In this document: in pieces, positions 3,998 through 13,808 of the stretch
Layout of the letters: each line of letters begins with the position of its first letter
Position numbering within the stretch: the first letter of the stretch is position 1
Virus genome (UHGV): UHGV-0137970
Length of the DNA: 38,160 nucleotides
Strand: one strand, 5' to 3'
DNA from: a virus
Program-made: the position numbers and the translations under genes
The notes under the pieces: model-generated
Database searches by the model: none
Told to the model about the DNA's origin: nothing
The model's input: only the letters and a program-made list of their open reading frames with translations

Positions 3998-4312
3998 TTA
4001 CAGTTCTTTTATAGCTGATAATATTTTTTTTAATTTTTTGTTTTCTTTATCTAGTTTTTCAAAGTATGCCGCCGCCTTTGGTTCTGCTCTGTCCATGCTC
4101 CAAGCTTTCCACACTTCCAATTCTTCATCTTTTGTTAAATTTAAAAATTCAATAATGTTTTTTATAGTTGTTTCTTTTCCTATGAACCTTTTGTTTAAAA
4201 TGTCTGATAATGTCCCTGTTGATATTTCCGCAGCCTCTGCGATTTCTTTTTGCTTGAATCCTTTTTCTTGAATGATCTCTTTCAATATTTTTCCAGTTCT
4301 CATTTTTTTCAC
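3998..4312 (-). CDS. CI-like repressor (XRE-family HTH, 104 aa)
   Basis: KQKEIAEAAEISTGTLSDILNKRF is an HTH_XRE signature. Divergently oriented to the early operon, sharing a short AT-rich control region. Confidence 0.6.
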   Translation of the reverse strand: MKKMRTGKILKEIIQEKGFKQKEIAEAAEISTGTLSDILNKRFIGKETTIKNIIEFLNLTKDEELEVWKAWSMDRAEPKAAAYFEKLDKENKKLKKILSAIKEL

Positions 4313-8153: not shown

Positions 8154-8714
8154 ATGGCTGAAAGATTAGAAGATTTTTTATTATTTTTAGATTTTGCAGG
8201 GATTAGCCCTGAAAATGCGGTAACAGATGGACAAAGAGCAATAGAATATTTTTATACCACTAGAGAAAGAACAATCCAAAGTCCAAGAGGTGGATGGAGA
8301 AAAAGACTTTACAAATACCCTAAAATTAAACTTACTGATTTTATGAACAAAAAAAAATTAGTTGATATAATACTTAAAGACAAAATAAAAGATATCCAGT
8401 CTAATACTGAAATAAATATTAACTGGTGGGATAATGGTTGTGGTAGAAAGTTTTATATTGATTGCCCTGAGTTTTCTTGCGAGGTTAGAACCACTGGAAA
8501 CACTAAAGTAAAAAAAGGTTGGTATAGATCGTTAGAAATCATAGAGCCTGATTTTACAAATGATCATTTTAAAATTAAAGAATTCAATGTATATGTAGCT
8601 AATGTTAAATTTAAAAATCTTACTCGTGAAGAGCATACAAATGCTGTTTTAAAATTTACTTTCCAAAAACACAGGGTTGGATTTTGGAAAGATAGAGAAA
8701 AAATGTTACCATAA
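8154..8714 (+). CDS. hypothetical 186-aa protein downstream of the SSAP. Possible nuclease partner
   Basis: Genetic context (recombination module). Weak PD-(D/E)xK-like spacing (EPDF...KEFNVYVANVK). Low confidence in function. Confidence 0.4.
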   Translation: MAERLEDFLLFLDFAGISPENAVTDGQRAIEYFYTTRERTIQSPRGGWRKRLYKYPKIKLTDFMNKKKLVDIILKDKIKDIQSNTEININWWDNGCGRKFYIDCPEFSCEVRTTGNTKVKKGWYRSLEIIEPDFTNDHFKIKEFNVYVANVKFKNLTREEHTNAVLKFTFQKHRVGFWKDREKMLP

Positions 8715-8718
8715 AAAA

Positions 8719-8757
8719 TAACACCCCACCTAGCCGACAAGATGGGGGGTTATTTTG
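8719..8757. terminator. terminator of the early operon (AACACCCCA...TGGGGGGTT, then TATTTTG). Also reads as a terminator on the minus strand
   Basis: GC-rich imperfect stem flanked by A-run and T-run. Confidence 0.4.
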
Positions 8758-8892
8758 AATAACGGTTAAAAACTTTTTACTACTTTTAACCTCCTAATGA
8801 TTTTTATAGATATAGATAAAAATCTTATTGGGGTTTAAAAATCAAAGTAGTAGTAATGAATAAATTAAATTAAAAAAATCAGGTTCTAATTA

Positions 8893-8921
8893 ATAGTATA
8901 ACAATTACCTAGAAGTTTCAA
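8893..8921 (-). promoter_or_regulatory. minus-strand promoter candidate inside the conserved motif AAATTTGAAACTTCTAGGTAAT (TTGAAA-17-TACTAT)
   Basis: Near-identical motif copy at 19941-19975. Would drive a short leftward non-coding transcript ending at the 8719-8757 hairpin. Confidence 0.3.
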
Positions 8922-8946
8922 ATTTTTCTTAAAACTTACGCAGAGC

Positions 8947-9042
8947 AAAAAAAGAAGAAAGCCTATCACCCAATAGGCTTTCTGATTACAGTTTGGTTTT
9001 TGGGTTTGTTTTATCTTGTGAGGATAAAACGGCTTTAAAGCT
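8947..9042 (-). ncRNA. candidate small RNA (~95 nt) next to the plasmid origin
   Basis: Transcribed from promoter 9049-9077. Internal hairpin GTTTTATCctcacaaGATAAAAC, C/A-rich linker, then terminator GAAAGCCTAT-caccca-ATAGGCTTTC + UUCUUUUUUU (8957-8982). Overlaps only the implausible ORF 8886-9131. Confidence 0.3.
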
Positions 9043-9048
9043 ACTTTA

Positions 9049-9077
9049 ATAATACCATACATATTAAATTGTGTCAA
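9049..9077 (-). promoter_or_regulatory. sigma70-like promoter TTGACA-17-TATTAT (minus strand)
   Basis: Minus read: TTGACAcaatttaatatgtatggTATTAT. Confidence 0.45.
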
Positions 9078-9119
9078 ACTTAATATATAAAAATTAAATT
9101 TTGATGGGAAGTTCAAGTG

Positions 9120-9410
9120 ATAGGGTACCATTTTGTCACATTAATTTTTAAACCTACCAATATTAATAATTATGTATTGATAGATAAGGTACCTTTTTGT
9201 CAAATAAAAAAAGAGTGACAAAATGTCACCTATTTATAAGTTTATAAGTTTATATAGTTTAAGGAGCTCAAGACTTCCCTAAAAATAAGGACTTTAGCGA
9301 CATAAAAGTGAAGTCTTGTCAGTTTTCTGTGACGTTTTGTCAATAAAGTGTGAAGTCTTGTCAGTTTTCTGTGATGTTTTGTCAGCAAAGTGTGACGTTT
9401 TGTCAGAACT
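9120..9410. repeat. iteron array of a Rep_3-type origin (2.5 tandem ~42-bp repeats plus scattered TTTTGTCA/GTGACA boxes)
   Basis: aaagtgaagtcttgtcagttttctgtgacgttttgtcaat / aaagtgtgaagtcttgtcagttttctgtgatgttttgtcagc / aaagtgtgacgttttgtcag. Upstream boxes at 9127-9140, 9193-9228. Confidence 0.7.
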
Positions 9411-9448
9411 GTTTTTACTTATAAAGTATTAAAGATGTTTATAATGTA

Positions 9449-9475
9449 ATGTGAAAAATTGTTGCTTTTTTCACT
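9449..9475. promoter_or_regulatory. inverted repeat GTGAAAAAttgttgcTTTTTTCAC (candidate RepB operator), followed by an AT-rich DUE-like stretch
   Basis: Second copy GTGAAAAtttattaTTTTTTTCAC at 9619-9648, just before the repB RBS. Confidence 0.4.
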
Positions 9476-9618
9476 CATTGAATATAAAATGTGGTTATTA
9501 CTTATTTATAATTAAAATTTATATTCCAACATTTGTTACAAAATGTCGTACTTTAAAGTGTGAAAAAAACTTAATTTTTGGGTAGATTTTATTTAAAAAA
9601 TATTGTATATTTAATTAA

Positions 9619-9648
9619 GCGTGAAAATTTATTATTTTTTTCACACTA
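9619..9648. promoter_or_regulatory. second GTGAAAA/TTTTCAC inverted repeat overlapping the repB promoter region
   Basis: See 9449-9475. Confidence 0.4.
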
Positions 9649-9677
9649 TGATTACAATTTTAAAGAAAGGGGTTAGA

Positions 9678-10595
9678 ATGGAAAAAGAATCAAATGCAAT
9701 AGTAGAGTATAGTAAAGATTTTGCTACTTCTATGAATAATTATTCAGCTTATGAAATGGATTTAGTATTAACTTTAGCTTACTCAGCAAGAAAAAAAGTT
9801 ACCGACCACATGAATGTGGCAGTAGATAAAGATTTAGAATTAGAATTATCCTCACAAGCTATAAAAAAATTACTTCAAGGTAATGTTTCAATGAAAAGAT
9901 TAACAGAATCACTAGAGAAAATTTATGATACTAAAATTTACTTTGAGGAAGATGAGTATAATGTTTGTGAACATATATTTGATAAGCTATGTTTCAGTAA
10001 AGATAATAAAAAGATTATTTTTGTTCTTAAAAAGAAATATATTCATTTGTTTTTTAATCTTACTGGAAATTTTACCCAACATGAGCTTTTAGAATTTGCA
10101 AGTCTAAAGGGTAAATATGCTAAAAAAATATATCAAATTGTGATGAGCTATAAAGGGCTAAAAAAGAAAGAATATTCAGGAGAGTTTTTCAGGCACTTAT
10201 TAAATGTTCCTGAATCATATAGATGGGCAGATGTCGAAGCTAAGGTTATAGGGGTGACTAAAAAAGAATTTGAAAAAACTAATATAATAAACTTAGAACT
10301 GGAGAGAAAAAGAGCAGGAAAAGAAGTTGATAAAGTCATATTACATTGGGATATAAAAGAACCTGAAATAATAAAAGAAGAGCCAAAGAAAAAGCCTAAA
10401 AAAGAAGTAAAGAAAGAAGAAATTGAAGATATAAAAATTGTAGAACCTGAAGACCTTACACCAGAGGAAGAAGAAAAAGGACTTGAAAAATTAATATCTG
10501 ATGGAATGGATAAAGGCTTTATTGAAACTATGAAAAGAAATAATAAAACTATGTATATTAATTTTATAAGAGCTTGTTTAAAAGGGGTGGAGTAA
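9678..10595 (+). CDS. repB: Rep_3-family (RepA/RepB-type) theta replication initiator
   Basis: Sits directly downstream of iterons. Winged-helix-like segments (FTQHELLEFASLKGKYAKKIYQIVMSYKGL). Lys/Glu-rich C-terminal tail. Start placed at MEKESN... after RBS AAAGGGGTTAGAATG. Confidence 0.65.
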   Translation: MEKESNAIVEYSKDFATSMNNYSAYEMDLVLTLAYSARKKVTDHMNVAVDKDLELELSSQAIKKLLQGNVSMKRLTESLEKIYDTKIYFEEDEYNVCEHIFDKLCFSKDNKKIIFVLKKKYIHLFFNLTGNFTQHELLEFASLKGKYAKKIYQIVMSYKGLKKKEYSGEFFRHLLNVPESYRWADVEAKVIGVTKKEFEKTNIINLELERKRAGKEVDKVILHWDIKEPEIIKEEPKKKPKKEVKKEEIEDIKIVEPEDLTPEEEEKGLEKLISDGMDKGFIETMKRNNKTMYINFIRACLKGVE

Positions 10596-11101
10596 TGAAA
10601 ATAAACTACAAAAAAAGATTGGAATTACTAAAAGAAGAACATGAGAAATTATCAGGAACAAGAATAAAAGATAGTTTAGAGCTAGAAAAGCAGCTTGACT
10701 GGTATCATTATGCTTTAAAAAAATTAAAAGCAATTCCAGATATATATTTTGAACCTCACGAAAAAGAAAGATTAATGGAAAAGTTTAAAAATAAATATTG
10801 GTTTCTTATGCAAGAAGAAAGAGAAGAACCGATAAAATATATTTTACCAGAATGTGGACAAGTATTAATATACAAACTCCAAAAAAGAGATGTTGAAATT
10901 CAAGAGGAGTTAAAGTTTGAAAATGCTAGAGAGCATTACAAGGAATATTTAGACTGGTACTGTAAAGCTTGTGAAGAGCTTAATAAAATACCCGATATTT
11001 GCTTTGATGATAAAGAGAGAAAAGAGATTGTAGAGCATTTTGAAAAACAATTTCTTAATATACTTACTTTAATACAGGGGGTAGAAAATGAAAATAATTA
11101 G
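10595..11101 (+). CDS. hypothetical 168-aa protein with an internal tandem duplication, translationally coupled between repB and parA
   Basis: TAATG overlap with repB and overlap with parA. Repeats LDWYHYALKKLKAIPDIYFEPHEKERLMEKF and LDWYCKACEELNKIPDICFDDKERKEIVEHF. Confidence 0.5.
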   Translation: MKINYKKRLELLKEEHEKLSGTRIKDSLELEKQLDWYHYALKKLKAIPDIYFEPHEKERLMEKFKNKYWFLMQEEREEPIKYILPECGQVLIYKLQKRDVEIQEELKFENAREHYKEYLDWYCKACEELNKIPDICFDDKERKEIVEHFEKQFLNILTLIQGVENENN

Positions 11102-11822
11102 TTTTATGGTTGAAAAGGGTGGAACAGGTAAAACAACAGGAGCTAGAGAAGTAGCTGGAATGTTACAAAGGGATAAGAAAGTCTTGCTTATAGATTTAGA
11201 CTTCCAAAGAAACCTTAGTACATCATTAAATTTCGAGAGCTCTCGAAATATTTATGACGCTATTATGAAGAGGGATTTTAAAGGGAATATTGTTAAGATA
11301 ACAGATAACCTAGATTTAATACCTGGAGATCTAAGAATGAGAAACTTAGATGATGATTTAAAAGTTAGTATCACATCTGATTTTGTGATTAAAGAGCAAT
11401 TATCTGTGATTAATCACTATGATTATGTGATTATAGATTGTAGACCTGATATGAAAAAGCCTGAAACAAATGCAATTAATGCAAGTGATATAGTTTTAAC
11501 ACCAATAGAGCCTCACTCGTTTAGCTTAGATGGATTTGATATTTTAGAAAGTTTTATAGGAACGCATAAAAGCACTCTAAAACCTAATCTAATACATAAA
11601 GGGTATCTTAGTCGCGTACCCAACGACAAAAAGTTTTTAGAGGGTATTGGGGAGCTCTTGATTGATTATCGTGAGGATATGTTAGTGAGTTTTATAAGAG
11701 AGAATATAAAACTTAAAGAAGCTGAAATGTGTGGTGAGTTTATATATGAGTATTCACCACGTAGTAATGGTACAACAGACTTTGAAAATTTAACAAGGGA
11801 GATATTAAGATATGGTAAGTAA
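11088..11822 (+). CDS. parA: ParA/Soj-family partition ATPase (type Ib, no N-terminal HTH)
   Basis: Deviant Walker A MKIISFMVEKGGTGKTT. Size of 244 aa. Operon position after rep. Confidence 0.85.
   Translation: MKIISFMVEKGGTGKTTGAREVAGMLQRDKKVLLIDLDFQRNLSTSLNFESSRNIYDAIMKRDFKGNIVKITDNLDLIPGDLRMRNLDDDLKVSITSDFVIKEQLSVINHYDYVIIDCRPDMKKPETNAINASDIVLTPIEPHSFSLDGFDILESFIGTHKSTLKPNLIHKGYLSRVPNDKKFLEGIGELLIDYREDMLVSFIRENIKLKEAEMCGEFIYEYSPRSNGTTDFENLTREILRYGK
11231..11248. repeat. 18-bp perfect palindrome TTTCGAGAGCTCTCGAAA (site B, inside parA)
   Basis: Encodes NFESSRNI in parA. Different reading frame from site A, so conservation is at DNA level. Confidence 0.8.
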
Positions 11823-12483
11823 ATTTAATAAAGCTCTTAGACGTCGTGAAAGGGTCGTTCCTGCCCTTTCACAAGAAAGTAATACAATAAGTCAAGTAAT
11901 AGCCGAGGAGCTTTATTTTGACTATAATAGGCTCGTGATAGATACAGATGATAAGAACTCTTTAATAACTTATGAGAAAGAACTTCTTTACCAAAGAAAA
12001 AGAATTGGAGAAATTGCACTAACATTAGGGGAAACTTTGGAAAAGGCAAGAGAGATATTTGCTAAAAATAACCTTGAGGAAACTTTTACAGAGTGGTACA
12101 CAACGCTTGGGTACAACAAGGACCAAGTGTATTTACTAAGGGGTAGATATAGATTGTATCTGGAAAACCCAAGTTATAAAGATAGAGTCCAATCTCTATC
12201 TGATGTAGAGGTAAAAGAGGTTATTAATAAGGCTACTCCTCCAGCATTAGTATTTAAAGTATTAGATGGAGAAGTAAGAACAGGTAAAGGAATTAAAGAG
12301 GCTCGTAACCATTTTGCCGATGTCAACAAAATGGTAGATGCCGACGCCAGCAAAACGATAAATATTAAGAGTGAAAAGAGTATCCAAGATAGAATAATGG
12401 AAATTAATGATGAGATCTACAAGCATGAAACGGCTATAAAACTACTAAGAGAAGAAATGGCGGACCTAGTAAAGAAGCTTTAA
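11812..12483 (+). CDS. putative partition partner (ParB-like / centromere-binding adaptor), 223 aa
   Basis: Overlaps the parA stop. Coiled-coil-rich. Lacks the canonical ParB GxRR box, so assignment is by position only. Confidence 0.4.
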   Translation: MVSKFNKALRRRERVVPALSQESNTISQVIAEELYFDYNRLVIDTDDKNSLITYEKELLYQRKRIGEIALTLGETLEKAREIFAKNNLEETFTEWYTTLGYNKDQVYLLRGRYRLYLENPSYKDRVQSLSDVEVKEVINKATPPALVFKVLDGEVRTGKGIKEARNHFADVNKMVDADASKTINIKSEKSIQDRIMEINDEIYKHETAIKLLREEMADLVKKL

Positions 12484-12496
12484 AAGCTTACGTAGA

Positions 12497-12530
12497 GCTA
12501 AAAAGGGGAAATTAAGCCCCTTTTTGTTTT
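12497..12530. terminator. bidirectional terminator between the par operon and the convergent minus-strand genes
   Basis: AAAAGGGGaaattaagCCCCTTTTT with T-runs on both sides. Confidence 0.55.
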
Positions 12531-12855
12531 ACATCTCTGAGATTTCTTTAGTTAAATGTTTTACTCTTTCTTCTAATATCTCATACACACAACGCCATGC
12601 CATTGCTTTTTCTTCTATGACGTCTCTATCATGTCCATTCTGACGTTCTCTAGTTTCATAGTCTCTTATTATATTACCGTATCTATCCAAGCCCTTATTT
12701 GCCCAATCAAGACGTTGCTTAGCAGATTGAATATAAAAGTTTTCCATGTCTGTGTCTTGTTCCTCTTTTTCTCTTTTAGCGTTTTTCAAATCATATCCGC
12801 TGTCTTTTATATGGTCTTCTATTGTCCATATAAGCCTTTTTAATTTATGTTTCAT
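12529..12855 (-). CDS. hypothetical protein (108 aa)
   Basis: ORF with RBS GAGGAGG. Charged, helical. Confidence 0.4.
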   Translation of the reverse strand: MKHKLKRLIWTIEDHIKDSGYDLKNAKREKEEQDTDMENFYIQSAKQRLDWANKGLDRYGNIIRDYETRERQNGHDRDVIEEKAMAWRCVYEILEERVKHLTKEISEM

Positions 12856-13223: not shown

Positions 13224-13808
13224 TTATTTAGTTGCTGGAGCTGGTGTTGTTTGAGTTGCTGTTGGAGCTTCCCAAGCATTGTATCTAGGCATTACACCAG
13301 GACATAATGAATCTAAAGGCGTTACAAGTTTTCCAGGAACGAATGTTGCATTTACATAGCAATATAGGTTTTGGTCTCCTGCTGCTCTTCTTTCAGCTTC
13401 AAGAGCAATAGCTCCCTCTAAGTTAGTCTTAACTTTGTCTATTTCACAACTAAGTTGAGCTAGTCTAACTCTGTTATCAACTGCTTCTTTATTTAGATTT
13501 TCAAATAGAGTAGCATACTTTTCATCTTTTTTCTCAAATATTCCAAGCACTTCTTTGAATGTATTGATACCTACTCCATCTGCATACTTTTCAGCTTTAA
13601 GTTGTGCTATCTCTGCGTCTTTTTTACCAAGTTCTGCTACTGCTCCAAGTCCAGCTAAAGTATTGGTATTGTTACAGTTTCCTCCAAATAGTCCTCCTAG
13701 TAGTCCATTACCATTATTAGAACCATTTAAGATTCCTAAAGCTGTACCAGCTATTCCAAGACCTAGTCCAGTACCCGCTACACCTTTACTTGCATATTCT
13801 TCTGCCAT
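13224..13808 (-). CDS. membrane protein with N-terminal glycine-zipper TM segment, coiled coil and Cys-containing C-terminal domain
   Basis: GVAGTGLGLGIAGTALGILNG (GxxxG repeats). Heptad-like middle. C-terminal LYCYVNATFVPG...LCPGV. RBS AAGGAGG. Confidence 0.45.
   Translation of the reverse strand: MAEEYASKGVAGTGLGLGIAGTALGILNGSNNGNGLLGGLFGGNCNNTNTLAGLGAVAELGKKDAEIAQLKAEKYADGVGINTFKEVLGIFEKKDEKYATLFENLNKEAVDNRVRLAQLSCEIDKVKTNLEGAIALEAERRAAGDQNLYCYVNATFVPGKLVTPLDSLCPGVMPRYNAWEAPTATQTTPAPATK

Follow-up and report, generated by a model that had tools for sequence, protein, structure and literature searches.

How would a short-tailed phage whose genome carries the origin, initiator and partition genes of a plasmid persist in its host? 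The question is raised by UHGV virus genome UHGV-0137970, a stretch of 38,160 nucleotides (the window, to which all positions refer) in which an earlier note, made from the letters alone, had proposed a podovirus with a plasmid maintenance unit, that is, a phage-plasmid. We consider it likely that this 38,160-bp element is a temperate short-tailed phage that lysogenizes as a low-copy circular plasmid, without integration, and most likely in Cetobacterium or related Fusobacteriaceae. A full set of phage genes and a set of plasmid replication and partition genes are found together on a single replicon, and the genome is closed. Given the plasmid-type origin, initiator and partition genes, and the lack of an integrase domain in any open reading frame (ORF) of at least 150 aa, persistence of the lysogen as a low-copy plasmid, in a host associated with fish or the gut, is most likely.

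The replication and partition cassette

The cassette lies between the early rightward operon and the end of the late operon, and its parts are the following.

8715-8756, + strand: hairpin with a T-run (inverted repeat I7, 17-nt arms, 88% complementary), ending the early rightward operon after orf186
9233-9262, + strand: A+T-rich AGTTTAW triple (TTTATAAG, 3.5 copies by Tandem Repeats Finder) upstream of the iterons; putative DNA-unwinding element
9308-9406, + strand: iteron array, five direct repeats with 21-bp spacing and the core GTGA(A/C/T)GT(C/T)TTGTCA; putative theta-replication origin
9451-9474, no strand: distal palindrome GTGAAAAA-N8-TTTTTCAC, whose arms also match the relaxed DnaA-box pattern TTWTNCACA
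9621-9644, no strand: palindrome GTGAAAA-N10-TTTTCAC, 34 nt upstream of the rep ATG; putative Rep operator or DnaA-box pair
9678-10595, + strand: rep, Rep_3-family initiator of 305 aa with two winged-helix domains (WH1 and WH2), predicted to bind the iterons
10595-11101, + strand: orf168, two copies of a unit of about 60 aa, found in the closest relatives only
11088-11822, + strand: parA, small partition ATPase of 244 aa without an N-terminal helix-turn-helix (HTH), type Ib-like
11812-12483, + strand: orf223, putative centromere-binding partner of ParA
12499-12526, no strand: terminator hairpin separating the rep-par operon from the late operon that converges on it

Both winged-helix domains of Rep score above the Pfam cut-offs for the Rep_3 family: Rep3_N (PF01051) at E 7.8e-15 (55.9 bits, cut-off 22.4) and Rep3_C (PF21205) at E 1.7e-8 (35 bits, cut-off 21.1). 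A profile built from Rep homologs matches RepE of the F plasmid (1rep) at E 6e-5. The matches of Rep fall in 771 plasmid records versus 2 phage records, the latter weak, and its identity to any plasmid Rep is at most 30%.

Upstream of rep, from 8715 to 9677, no credible ORF is present, and nowhere in the window is the A+T content higher (GC content 0.26 versus 0.315 overall). Within it, the array shows what defines iterons, namely direct repeats of about 17-22 bp, at helical-turn spacing, adjoining a rep gene. Tandem Repeats Finder describes it as period 21 with 4.7 copies and a 42-bp super-period at 91% matches. With at most one mismatch, five tandem copies of the motif GTGAMGTYTTGTCA are present, and the rest of the window has one inverted copy only, at 9216-9229. 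Between the array and rep are the two palindromes; GTGAAAA-N(6-12)-TTTTCAC has 2 matches in the whole window, compared with 0.01 expected by chance. The palindrome nearer to rep has GTGAA in common with the iteron, its arms are also compatible with the relaxed DnaA box, and the rep promoter is weakly predicted. By the paradigm of Rep_3 plasmids (F RepE), it is a putative site of autorepression. Strict DnaA boxes were not found in the window. Only relaxed matches (TTTTTCACA) are present, and these cluster in the palindromes, with a window-wide count equal to the chance expectation.

The genes rep, orf168, parA and orf223 form one operon of overlapping genes, each start having a G-rich ribosome-binding site: the TAA of rep overlaps the ATG of orf168 (TAATG), and the overlaps of parA with its neighbors are 14 nt (orf168) and 11 nt (orf223). 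The hairpin at 8715-8756, for which the terminator scan gives terminator-like calls only on the minus strand, keeps the rep-par unit apart from the early transcription upstream. The terminator at 12499-12526 was called on the plus strand only and is read as bidirectional from its position. Insulation of the operon by these terminators is consistent with its expression in a prophage state. The second gene, orf168, has no match to any family in Pfam, PHROGs or NCBIfam; its internal duplication (unit LDWY...IPDI.F) scores 85 versus 30 +/- 5.4 for shuffled sequences.

ParA matches AAA_31 at 1.5e-36 and CbiA at 4.5e-10 (Pfam), and carries at residue 10 the deviant Walker A motif of ParA proteins, KGGTGKT. 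Its closest solved structures are Soj, Borrelia PF-32 and delta of pSM19035. With significant E-values, it remains below the NCBIfam equivalog cut-offs (84.7 bits versus 180 for ParA_partition, 69.3 versus 400 for PrgP), and by these profiles it is a member of the superfamily outside any named equivalog.

The last gene of the operon, orf223, has no family match by sequence (Pfam, NCBIfam, PHROGs function, PDB phmmer/hmmsearch), nor was a ParB N-terminal domain (ParBc/Srx-like, binding cytidine triphosphate) found in it. Its AlphaFold model (mean confidence, pLDDT, 75.5) has a basic N-terminus of 23 disordered residues, followed by an all-helical remainder with an HTH-like core and a C-terminal coiled coil; K4, F5 and R12 are invariant. 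There are 37 homologs. One of these, 47% identical (E 1e-50), overlaps the end of parA on plasmid p6 of cultured Cetobacterium somerae, and the gene also stands next to parA in four related contigs that are described below (L014, L015, L017 and L029). This gene context (the p6 homolog beside parA and a Rep_3-ParA-orf223 trio in a Fusobacterium mortiferum element), a stronger argument than the model, leads us to see in orf223 the putative centromere-binding partner of ParA, an analog of ParB and not a demonstrable member of the ParB family. The structural scores behind this assignment, like those of orf332 below, are modest.

A centromere would be expected to appear as repeats, and no repeat class beyond iteron-related motifs was found in 8700-12600. 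One intragenic candidate, TGTGATTA repeated three times at an exact 21-bp spacing inside parA (11384-11433), was rejected as a coding coincidence, because it encodes the V-I pairs of FVIK, SVIN and YVII and is no longer present in L012 or in any more distant relative. Upstream of the origin, a conserved non-coding stretch holds a large imperfect palindrome (8784-8839; 24-nt core arms, extendable to about 45 nt), which is a candidate centromere or structured element.

Most of what the earlier note had proposed for this region is borne out. Five tandem 21-bp iterons and two palindromes upstream of rep are present (their role as operators is putative), profile searches recover both Rep_3 domains, the RepE match and the Walker-type ParA, and the four genes overlap as stated, with the "orf168" of the note corresponding to the gene at 10595-11101. 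Its "parB-like" label stands for the position of orf223 downstream of parA and fails for the Pfam ParB domain, which was not found.

Genome closure and conservation of the cassette

The junction that joins the end of the window to its start is present at 100% identity in three independent assemblies of 38,184, 38,279 and 38,215 bp (L025, L026 and L027). The break points of these assemblies differ, being at about 35483 and 1594 (window positions) for two of them. Given this, 38,160 bp is the length of a complete circular or circularly permuted genome, and the assembly graph was probably circular, as for a circular replicon or circularly permuted headful genome and not for one with fixed terminal repeats. 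One ORF spans the junction, and neither exact terminal repeats nor inverted repeats occur at the window ends. A further contig, L001, shows no difference from the window across the 3.9 kb that were compared; it is a MEGAHIT k119 contig (flag_3) of 38,279 bp, or 38,160 + 119. A Pfam scan of all ORFs of at least 150 aa found no integrase, recombinase, resolvase or transposase domain, and the window has no tRNA gene and no att-like feature or repeat.

It is worth considering whether the element could instead be an integrating temperate phage whose recombinase went unrecognized (e.g., orf186, or orf332 acting differently), in which case the contigs would represent excised or packaged DNA only. No family could be assigned to orf186 (8154-8714) or to several smaller ORFs, and some relatives encode small serine recombinases of 190-250 aa. 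However, these resolvases have the size of plasmid dimer resolvases or invertases, and the predicted fold of orf332 resembles Rep_trans proteins and not recombinases. Furthermore, the genome is closed and has no ORF with an integrase, resolvase or transposase domain and no tRNA or att-like repeat, and none of well over 100 related contigs runs into chromosomal flanks. We regard integration as improbable. In particular, an integrase and att sites just outside the window, which would have spoken against the proposal of the earlier note, are excluded, because the window closes on itself and lacks an integrase domain; the missing integrase agrees with what that note had stated.

The relatives (well over 100 contigs, coded L001-L029 among others) do not exceed about 45 kb. 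Contigs that carry the exact ParA, Rep variant P0007, or a member of the Rep cluster or the orf332 cluster are all of 50 kb or less, with maxima that cluster at 37-40 kb and 44.6 kb as the largest value. The exact ParA protein was recovered from 17 contigs, of which none is longer than 50 kb. All 34 Rep homologs are on contigs of at most 44 kb, many of 37-40 kb, and this also holds for the orf332 family, for cluster members and for 46 collection blocks with Rep variant P0007. In metagenome assemblies, the element thus appears as a separate replicon, with no integrase domain and with relatives on contigs of at most 44.6 kb.

Relatives whose Rep is 62%, 50%, 44% and 36-37% identical have the order rep-parA-partner at the same place, between recombination genes and the end of the late operon. 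The small gene orf168, sited between rep and parA, is absent in L014, L015 and L017. Arrays are present upstream of rep in L013, L014, L015, L022 and L017: GTGAAGTTTTGTCA occurs five times in L013, L014 has at least nine copies and L022 six to seven, L015 (Rep 36-37% identical) has a different 22-bp unit (ATGACGGTGTTTTGTAACAA, seven copies), and the iterons of the myovirus-type L017 also differ. An array that is always retained, with its sequence changed where Rep has diverged most, is what is expected of a cognate pair of initiator and site. The AGTTTAW triple precedes the iterons in L013, L015, L022 and L023, including contigs whose iterons differ, which fits an unwinding element read by the host. 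L002 and L011-L013 have also kept the palindrome at 9621-9644.

Parts of the cassette appear to move. The contig L013/L002 (ERZ27309444 k141_53028) has an identical ParA, a Rep that is 62% identical and nearly the same iteron core (GTGAAGTTTTGTCA), which indicates module exchange; comparison with window positions 9150-10595 suggests that recombination had a boundary within the origin region and that rep alleles were exchanged. The Rep_3-ParA-orf223 trio is also carried by a 43-49 kb myovirus-type element of the Fusobacterium mortiferum type (L017-L020, with baseplate J and sheath initiator genes). This element has its own 22-bp iterons, a second initiator (RepA_N), a resolvase, and a tyrosine recombinase beside inverted fiber genes that may be a fiber-switching invertase; it is probably another phage-plasmid. 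In the distant relative L029 (SRR22535648 contig, 38,235 bp), ParA and its partner are kept, the orf332 homolog is 38% identical, a 190-aa resolvase is among the late genes, and no Rep_3 gene is found between the RecT-like gene and parA. The orf332 homolog may be the replication initiator of L029.

Related elements, which the earlier note proposed to look for in public databases, were found among metagenome contigs and in IMG/VR; nucleotide searches of phage and plasmid collections with 8700-12600 gave no match. A portal search in PLSDB returned only very distant matches (20-22% identity) from Ralstonia, Legionella and Klebsiella.

Phage genes, a candidate lytic initiator and the lytic alternative

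The late genes form a single minus-strand operon that runs from 1329 around the window junction to 12529, starting with orf332, a 173-aa ORF, orf160 and orf79. It encodes a T7-type portal (PF12236, E 4.8e-32; PHROG 332), tail tube proteins A and B (PHROGs 394 and 376), a weak match to a gp14-like internal protein followed by proteins of 686 and 1630 aa (the internal-virion-protein matches are weak), TerL (PHROG 2), a fiber with a Gp10_C domain, and a lysozyme (PHROG 7, E 5.6e-59) alongside small lysis-sized genes; a dUTPase_2/MazG-like gene and scaffold- and capsid-sized genes that match no family are also present. The T7-like virion module, TerL and lysozyme named in the earlier note are thus recovered. 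Near the end of the operon, a 194-aa protein (13224-13808, minus strand), hydrophobic and rich in glycine in its N-terminal third and with a coiled-coil region, has no family match and is kept in all close relatives; it may be a membrane protein for lysis or superinfection exclusion.

Scans of the window with Pfam and PHROG found no RNA polymerase, DNA polymerase, primase or helicase domain in any ORF, and the host replisome must be used. Neither the single-subunit RNA polymerase nor the family A DNA polymerase of Autographivirales is present, and just one ORF, that of the 1630-aa virion protein, exceeds 700 aa. Judged by its genes, the virion resembles that of T7, whereas the modules for replication and transcription do not, and the phage is outside the T7 group.

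A plasmid bearing a decaying, non-inducible prophage or tailocin-like module, no longer a phage, would also combine these two sets of genes. Consistent with decay, the major capsid, the scaffold and several late genes lack a family match. However, the large late ORFs (1630, 686, 603, 525, 516 and 442 aa) are intact and also occur in many relatives at 37-100% identity, and the element has a portal, TerL, tail tube and lysozyme as well as holin-sized genes. The relatives are catalogued in IMG/VR, and genome size is held tightly at 37-40 kb, as under a packaging constraint. We find decay very unlikely.

Two further genes bear on the life cycle.

331-1329, - strand: orf332, first gene of the late operon; candidate diverged rolling-circle nickase of the Rep_trans type
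3998-4312, - strand: HTH (Cro/CI-type) repressor candidate (HTH_3, HTH_19 and PHROG repressor families), divergent from the early rightward operon

A Sak annealing protein is encoded in the early rightward operon, the last part of which is the rep-par unit. From its sequence and position, the repressor is a candidate lysogeny switch, as the CI-type switch of the earlier note supposed. The immunity region is the most variable part between otherwise near-identical genomes, as in heteroimmune temperate phages.

The gene orf332 is conserved in all relatives, including L029, which has no Rep_3. Sequence searches (PF02486, Pfam, NCBIfam, PHROGs function, PDB phmmer/hmmsearch) gave no match to a family or PDB chain. 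Rep_trans structures are its top fold matches by two methods, with low TM-scores of 0.27-0.38. The invariant residues K156-x-Y158-x-K160-x-x-E163 and R181-x-E183, on neighboring strands of the model, have the spacing of R189/Y191/K193/E196 and R212/E214 in RepDE, and the motif R-x-D-x-A-x-D is partly kept as D91-x-S93-x-Q95. On these grounds we lean slightly toward orf332 being a nickase that serves a separate lytic rolling-circle replicon, which would leave the Rep_3 unit dedicated to plasmid maintenance. Next to orf332, an 890-bp non-coding gap (1330-2215) separates the early leftward genes from the late operon. It holds short G+C-cored hairpins (1810-1835, 2003-2024, 2110-2136 and 2139-2162) and A+T palindromes (1921-1998), and could be a region of terminators or antitermination, a packaging site or the nick site of orf332.

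The element could also be a strictly lytic or carrier phage. In this scenario, Rep_3 and the iterons would be a vegetative origin like lambda O and ori-lambda, ParA and orf223 would have a different task, e.g., to place the sites of replication or assembly or to interfere with the host, and a plasmid prophage would not exist. L029 has ParA and its partner without Rep_3, and parts of the cassette are therefore separable. The circular assemblies are equally expected of a purely lytic, circularly permuted phage. In addition, neither a cultured lysogen nor other direct evidence of one was found, nor any close relative among PLSDB plasmids or isolate genomes. Several observations argue for lysogeny instead: a repressor of the Cro/CI type transcribed away from the early operon, with variation of a heteroimmune kind between near-identical genomes, a ParA partner homologous to the parA-paired gene of a true plasmid, terminators on both sides of the rep-par operon, and a second candidate initiator at the head of the late operon. 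We hold a strictly lytic life cycle to be unlikely.

Besides the circular assemblies and the lack of a lysogen or plasmid relative, a few points weigh against a plasmid prophage. The repressor has no recognizable cleavage domain and its Cro partner no HTH match. A scan of GTDB with the Rep profile gave a single match, on a 1.6-kb contig of a Cetobacterium metagenome-assembled genome (MAG), and the host assignment is built on MAG binning and one plasmid homolog. The lack of long contigs could partly reflect assembly breaks at abundant free phage.

If the element is maintained as a plasmid, its cycle may be pictured as follows. Infecting, circularly permuted DNA would form a circle, and the repressor (3998-4312) would shut off the early and late operons. 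The rep-orf168-parA-orf223 operon, having its own predicted promoter and lying behind its own terminator, would remain expressed. Rep monomers would occupy the five 21-bp iterons (9308-9406) and open the adjoining A+T-rich AGTTTAW repeats, and Rep would recruit the host helicase and replisome for theta replication. Rep dimers, host DnaA or both would restrict rep transcription from the palindrome just upstream of rep. Initiation and autorepression are argued here by analogy with F RepE and other Rep_3 plasmids. ParA, stimulated by the basic N-terminal tail of centromere-bound orf223, would partition the copies at division. Upon induction, the late operon would be switched on, and orf332 may nick the DNA to produce rolling-circle concatemers for headful packaging.

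The origin region holds two further sets of sites.

8948-9077, - strand: candidate small non-coding RNA of about 95 nt (promoter 9077-9049, probable start at about 9042, terminator hairpin 8983-8956)
9125-9138, 9189-9202 and 9216-9229 (palindromic), no strand: outlying iteron-like sites, possibly extra Rep sites

The sites at 9125 and 9189 (GGTACCWTTTTGTCA) are weak and match the iteron only at three mismatches. The promoter of the candidate RNA is near-consensus (TTGACA-17-TATTAT with TG, 11/12 matches), a strong terminator follows about 95 nt on, and the fold is predicted at -23 kcal/mol (z -3.4). The stretch is invariant in five relatives while the neighboring DNA varies, except for the 8-nt top of the terminator hairpin, which is TTGGGTGA in the window and, in the opposite orientation, TCACCCAA in the other relatives. 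The pairing of promoter and terminator suggests a small RNA; Rfam and tRNA scans of the whole window returned nothing. An 81-aa ORF on the minus strand (8886-9131) was taken as spurious, because it overlaps this conserved promoter and RNA stretch and its ATG is upstream of the predicted transcription start.

Host, known systems and significance

The earlier note had guessed at a diderm, low-GC host, and the relatives support this indirectly. Rep relatives are labeled as Cetobacterium MAGs and an orf223 homolog is on the C. somerae plasmid; more distant relatives come from a human gut metagenome and F. mortiferum. A diderm Fusobacteriaceae host would be in keeping with the GC content of 31.5% and the lysozyme-type endolysin.

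Phage-plasmids are known as a kind that is increasingly recognized, and include P1, N15, SSU5, the parABS actinobacteriophages and crAssphage. P1 of Escherichia coli is similar in being a circular plasmid prophage with an initiator and iterons beside its own gene and a ParA/ParB-type operon directly downstream. P1 has a separate lytic replicon (oriL/RepL) besides oriR, and orf332 may fill the place of that replicon. P1 is, however, a 94-kb myovirus with a large type Ia ParA that has an HTH, a canonical ParB, a defined parS and a second iteron set (incA). The element, in contrast, is a 38-kb podovirus with a small ParA and a non-canonical partner, and neither a parS nor an incA-like array was found in it, nor any sequence similarity to P1. 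F RepE, pPS10, R6K and pSC101 share with the element Rep3_N and Rep3_C, 21-bp iterons, an A+T-rich stretch and a palindrome near the rep promoter, which in the element shares the GTGAA start of the iteron. The Rep of the element is at most 30% identical to any plasmid Rep, and its iteron binding, monomer/dimer switch and dependence on DnaA are putative.

RedRock-type parABS actinobacteriophages are reportedly temperate, with an extrachromosomal prophage and a partition cassette in place of the integration cassette. Unlike the element, these are Mycobacterium siphoviruses with a canonical ParB, mapped parS sites and no known Rep_3/iteron unit. On plasmid p6 of C. somerae strain ceto (NZ_CP143325.1), parA is overlapped by the orf223 homolog in the same way (the ParAs are 30% identical), but p6 is a 48-kb plasmid with no phage genes, and its RepB-family initiator has no similarity to the Rep of the element. 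RepD and RepC of the pT181 family and RepSTK1 resemble orf332 by fold only, with no match at the sequence level.

The crAssphage genome is about 97 kb and is reported to be linear. Compared through the literature, crAssphage differs from the element in its Bacteroidota host and its own replication genes, and in having no known Rep_3/iteron/ParA cassette of this type. Like the element, crAssphage (Carjivirus communis) is a gut phage of podovirus type without an integrase, and has been proposed to be a phage-plasmid (PMC10983915; PMC7969092). That podovirus phage-plasmids are uncommon, as the earlier note held, is stated by Pfeifer et al. 2021 (PMC7969092), in whose survey few phage-plasmids are podoviruses and whose text does not mention Fusobacteria. 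No description of the element was found in the literature searched, and phage-plasmids have not so far been reported for this combination of podovirus shape and Fusobacteriaceae host.

More tentatively, and with somewhat more doubt than confidence, we suggest that the element represents a widespread, undescribed family of 37-40 kb Fusobacteriaceae phages of fish and human gut, with a T7-type virion and two replicons (Rep_3 for maintenance and orf332 for the lytic phase), no phage polymerases, and a cassette that is portable among podovirus- and myovirus-type phages and plasmids. The Rep_3-ParA-partner cassette is common to phages of different tail types, and the ParA-partner pair to a real plasmid, which supports the view of phage-plasmids as mediators of gene flow between phages and plasmids. 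Fusobacteriaceae are hard to manipulate genetically, and the origin-plus-rep and par modules could seed shuttle vectors for the group. Cetobacterium is a dominant genus of the fish gut and is used as a probiotic. If our reading is correct, the element would be a compact and tractable example of a phage-plasmid in this genus, with relatives in the human gut, and it would mean that a T7-type virion can be paired with replication and segregation that are plasmid-style and wholly dependent on the host.

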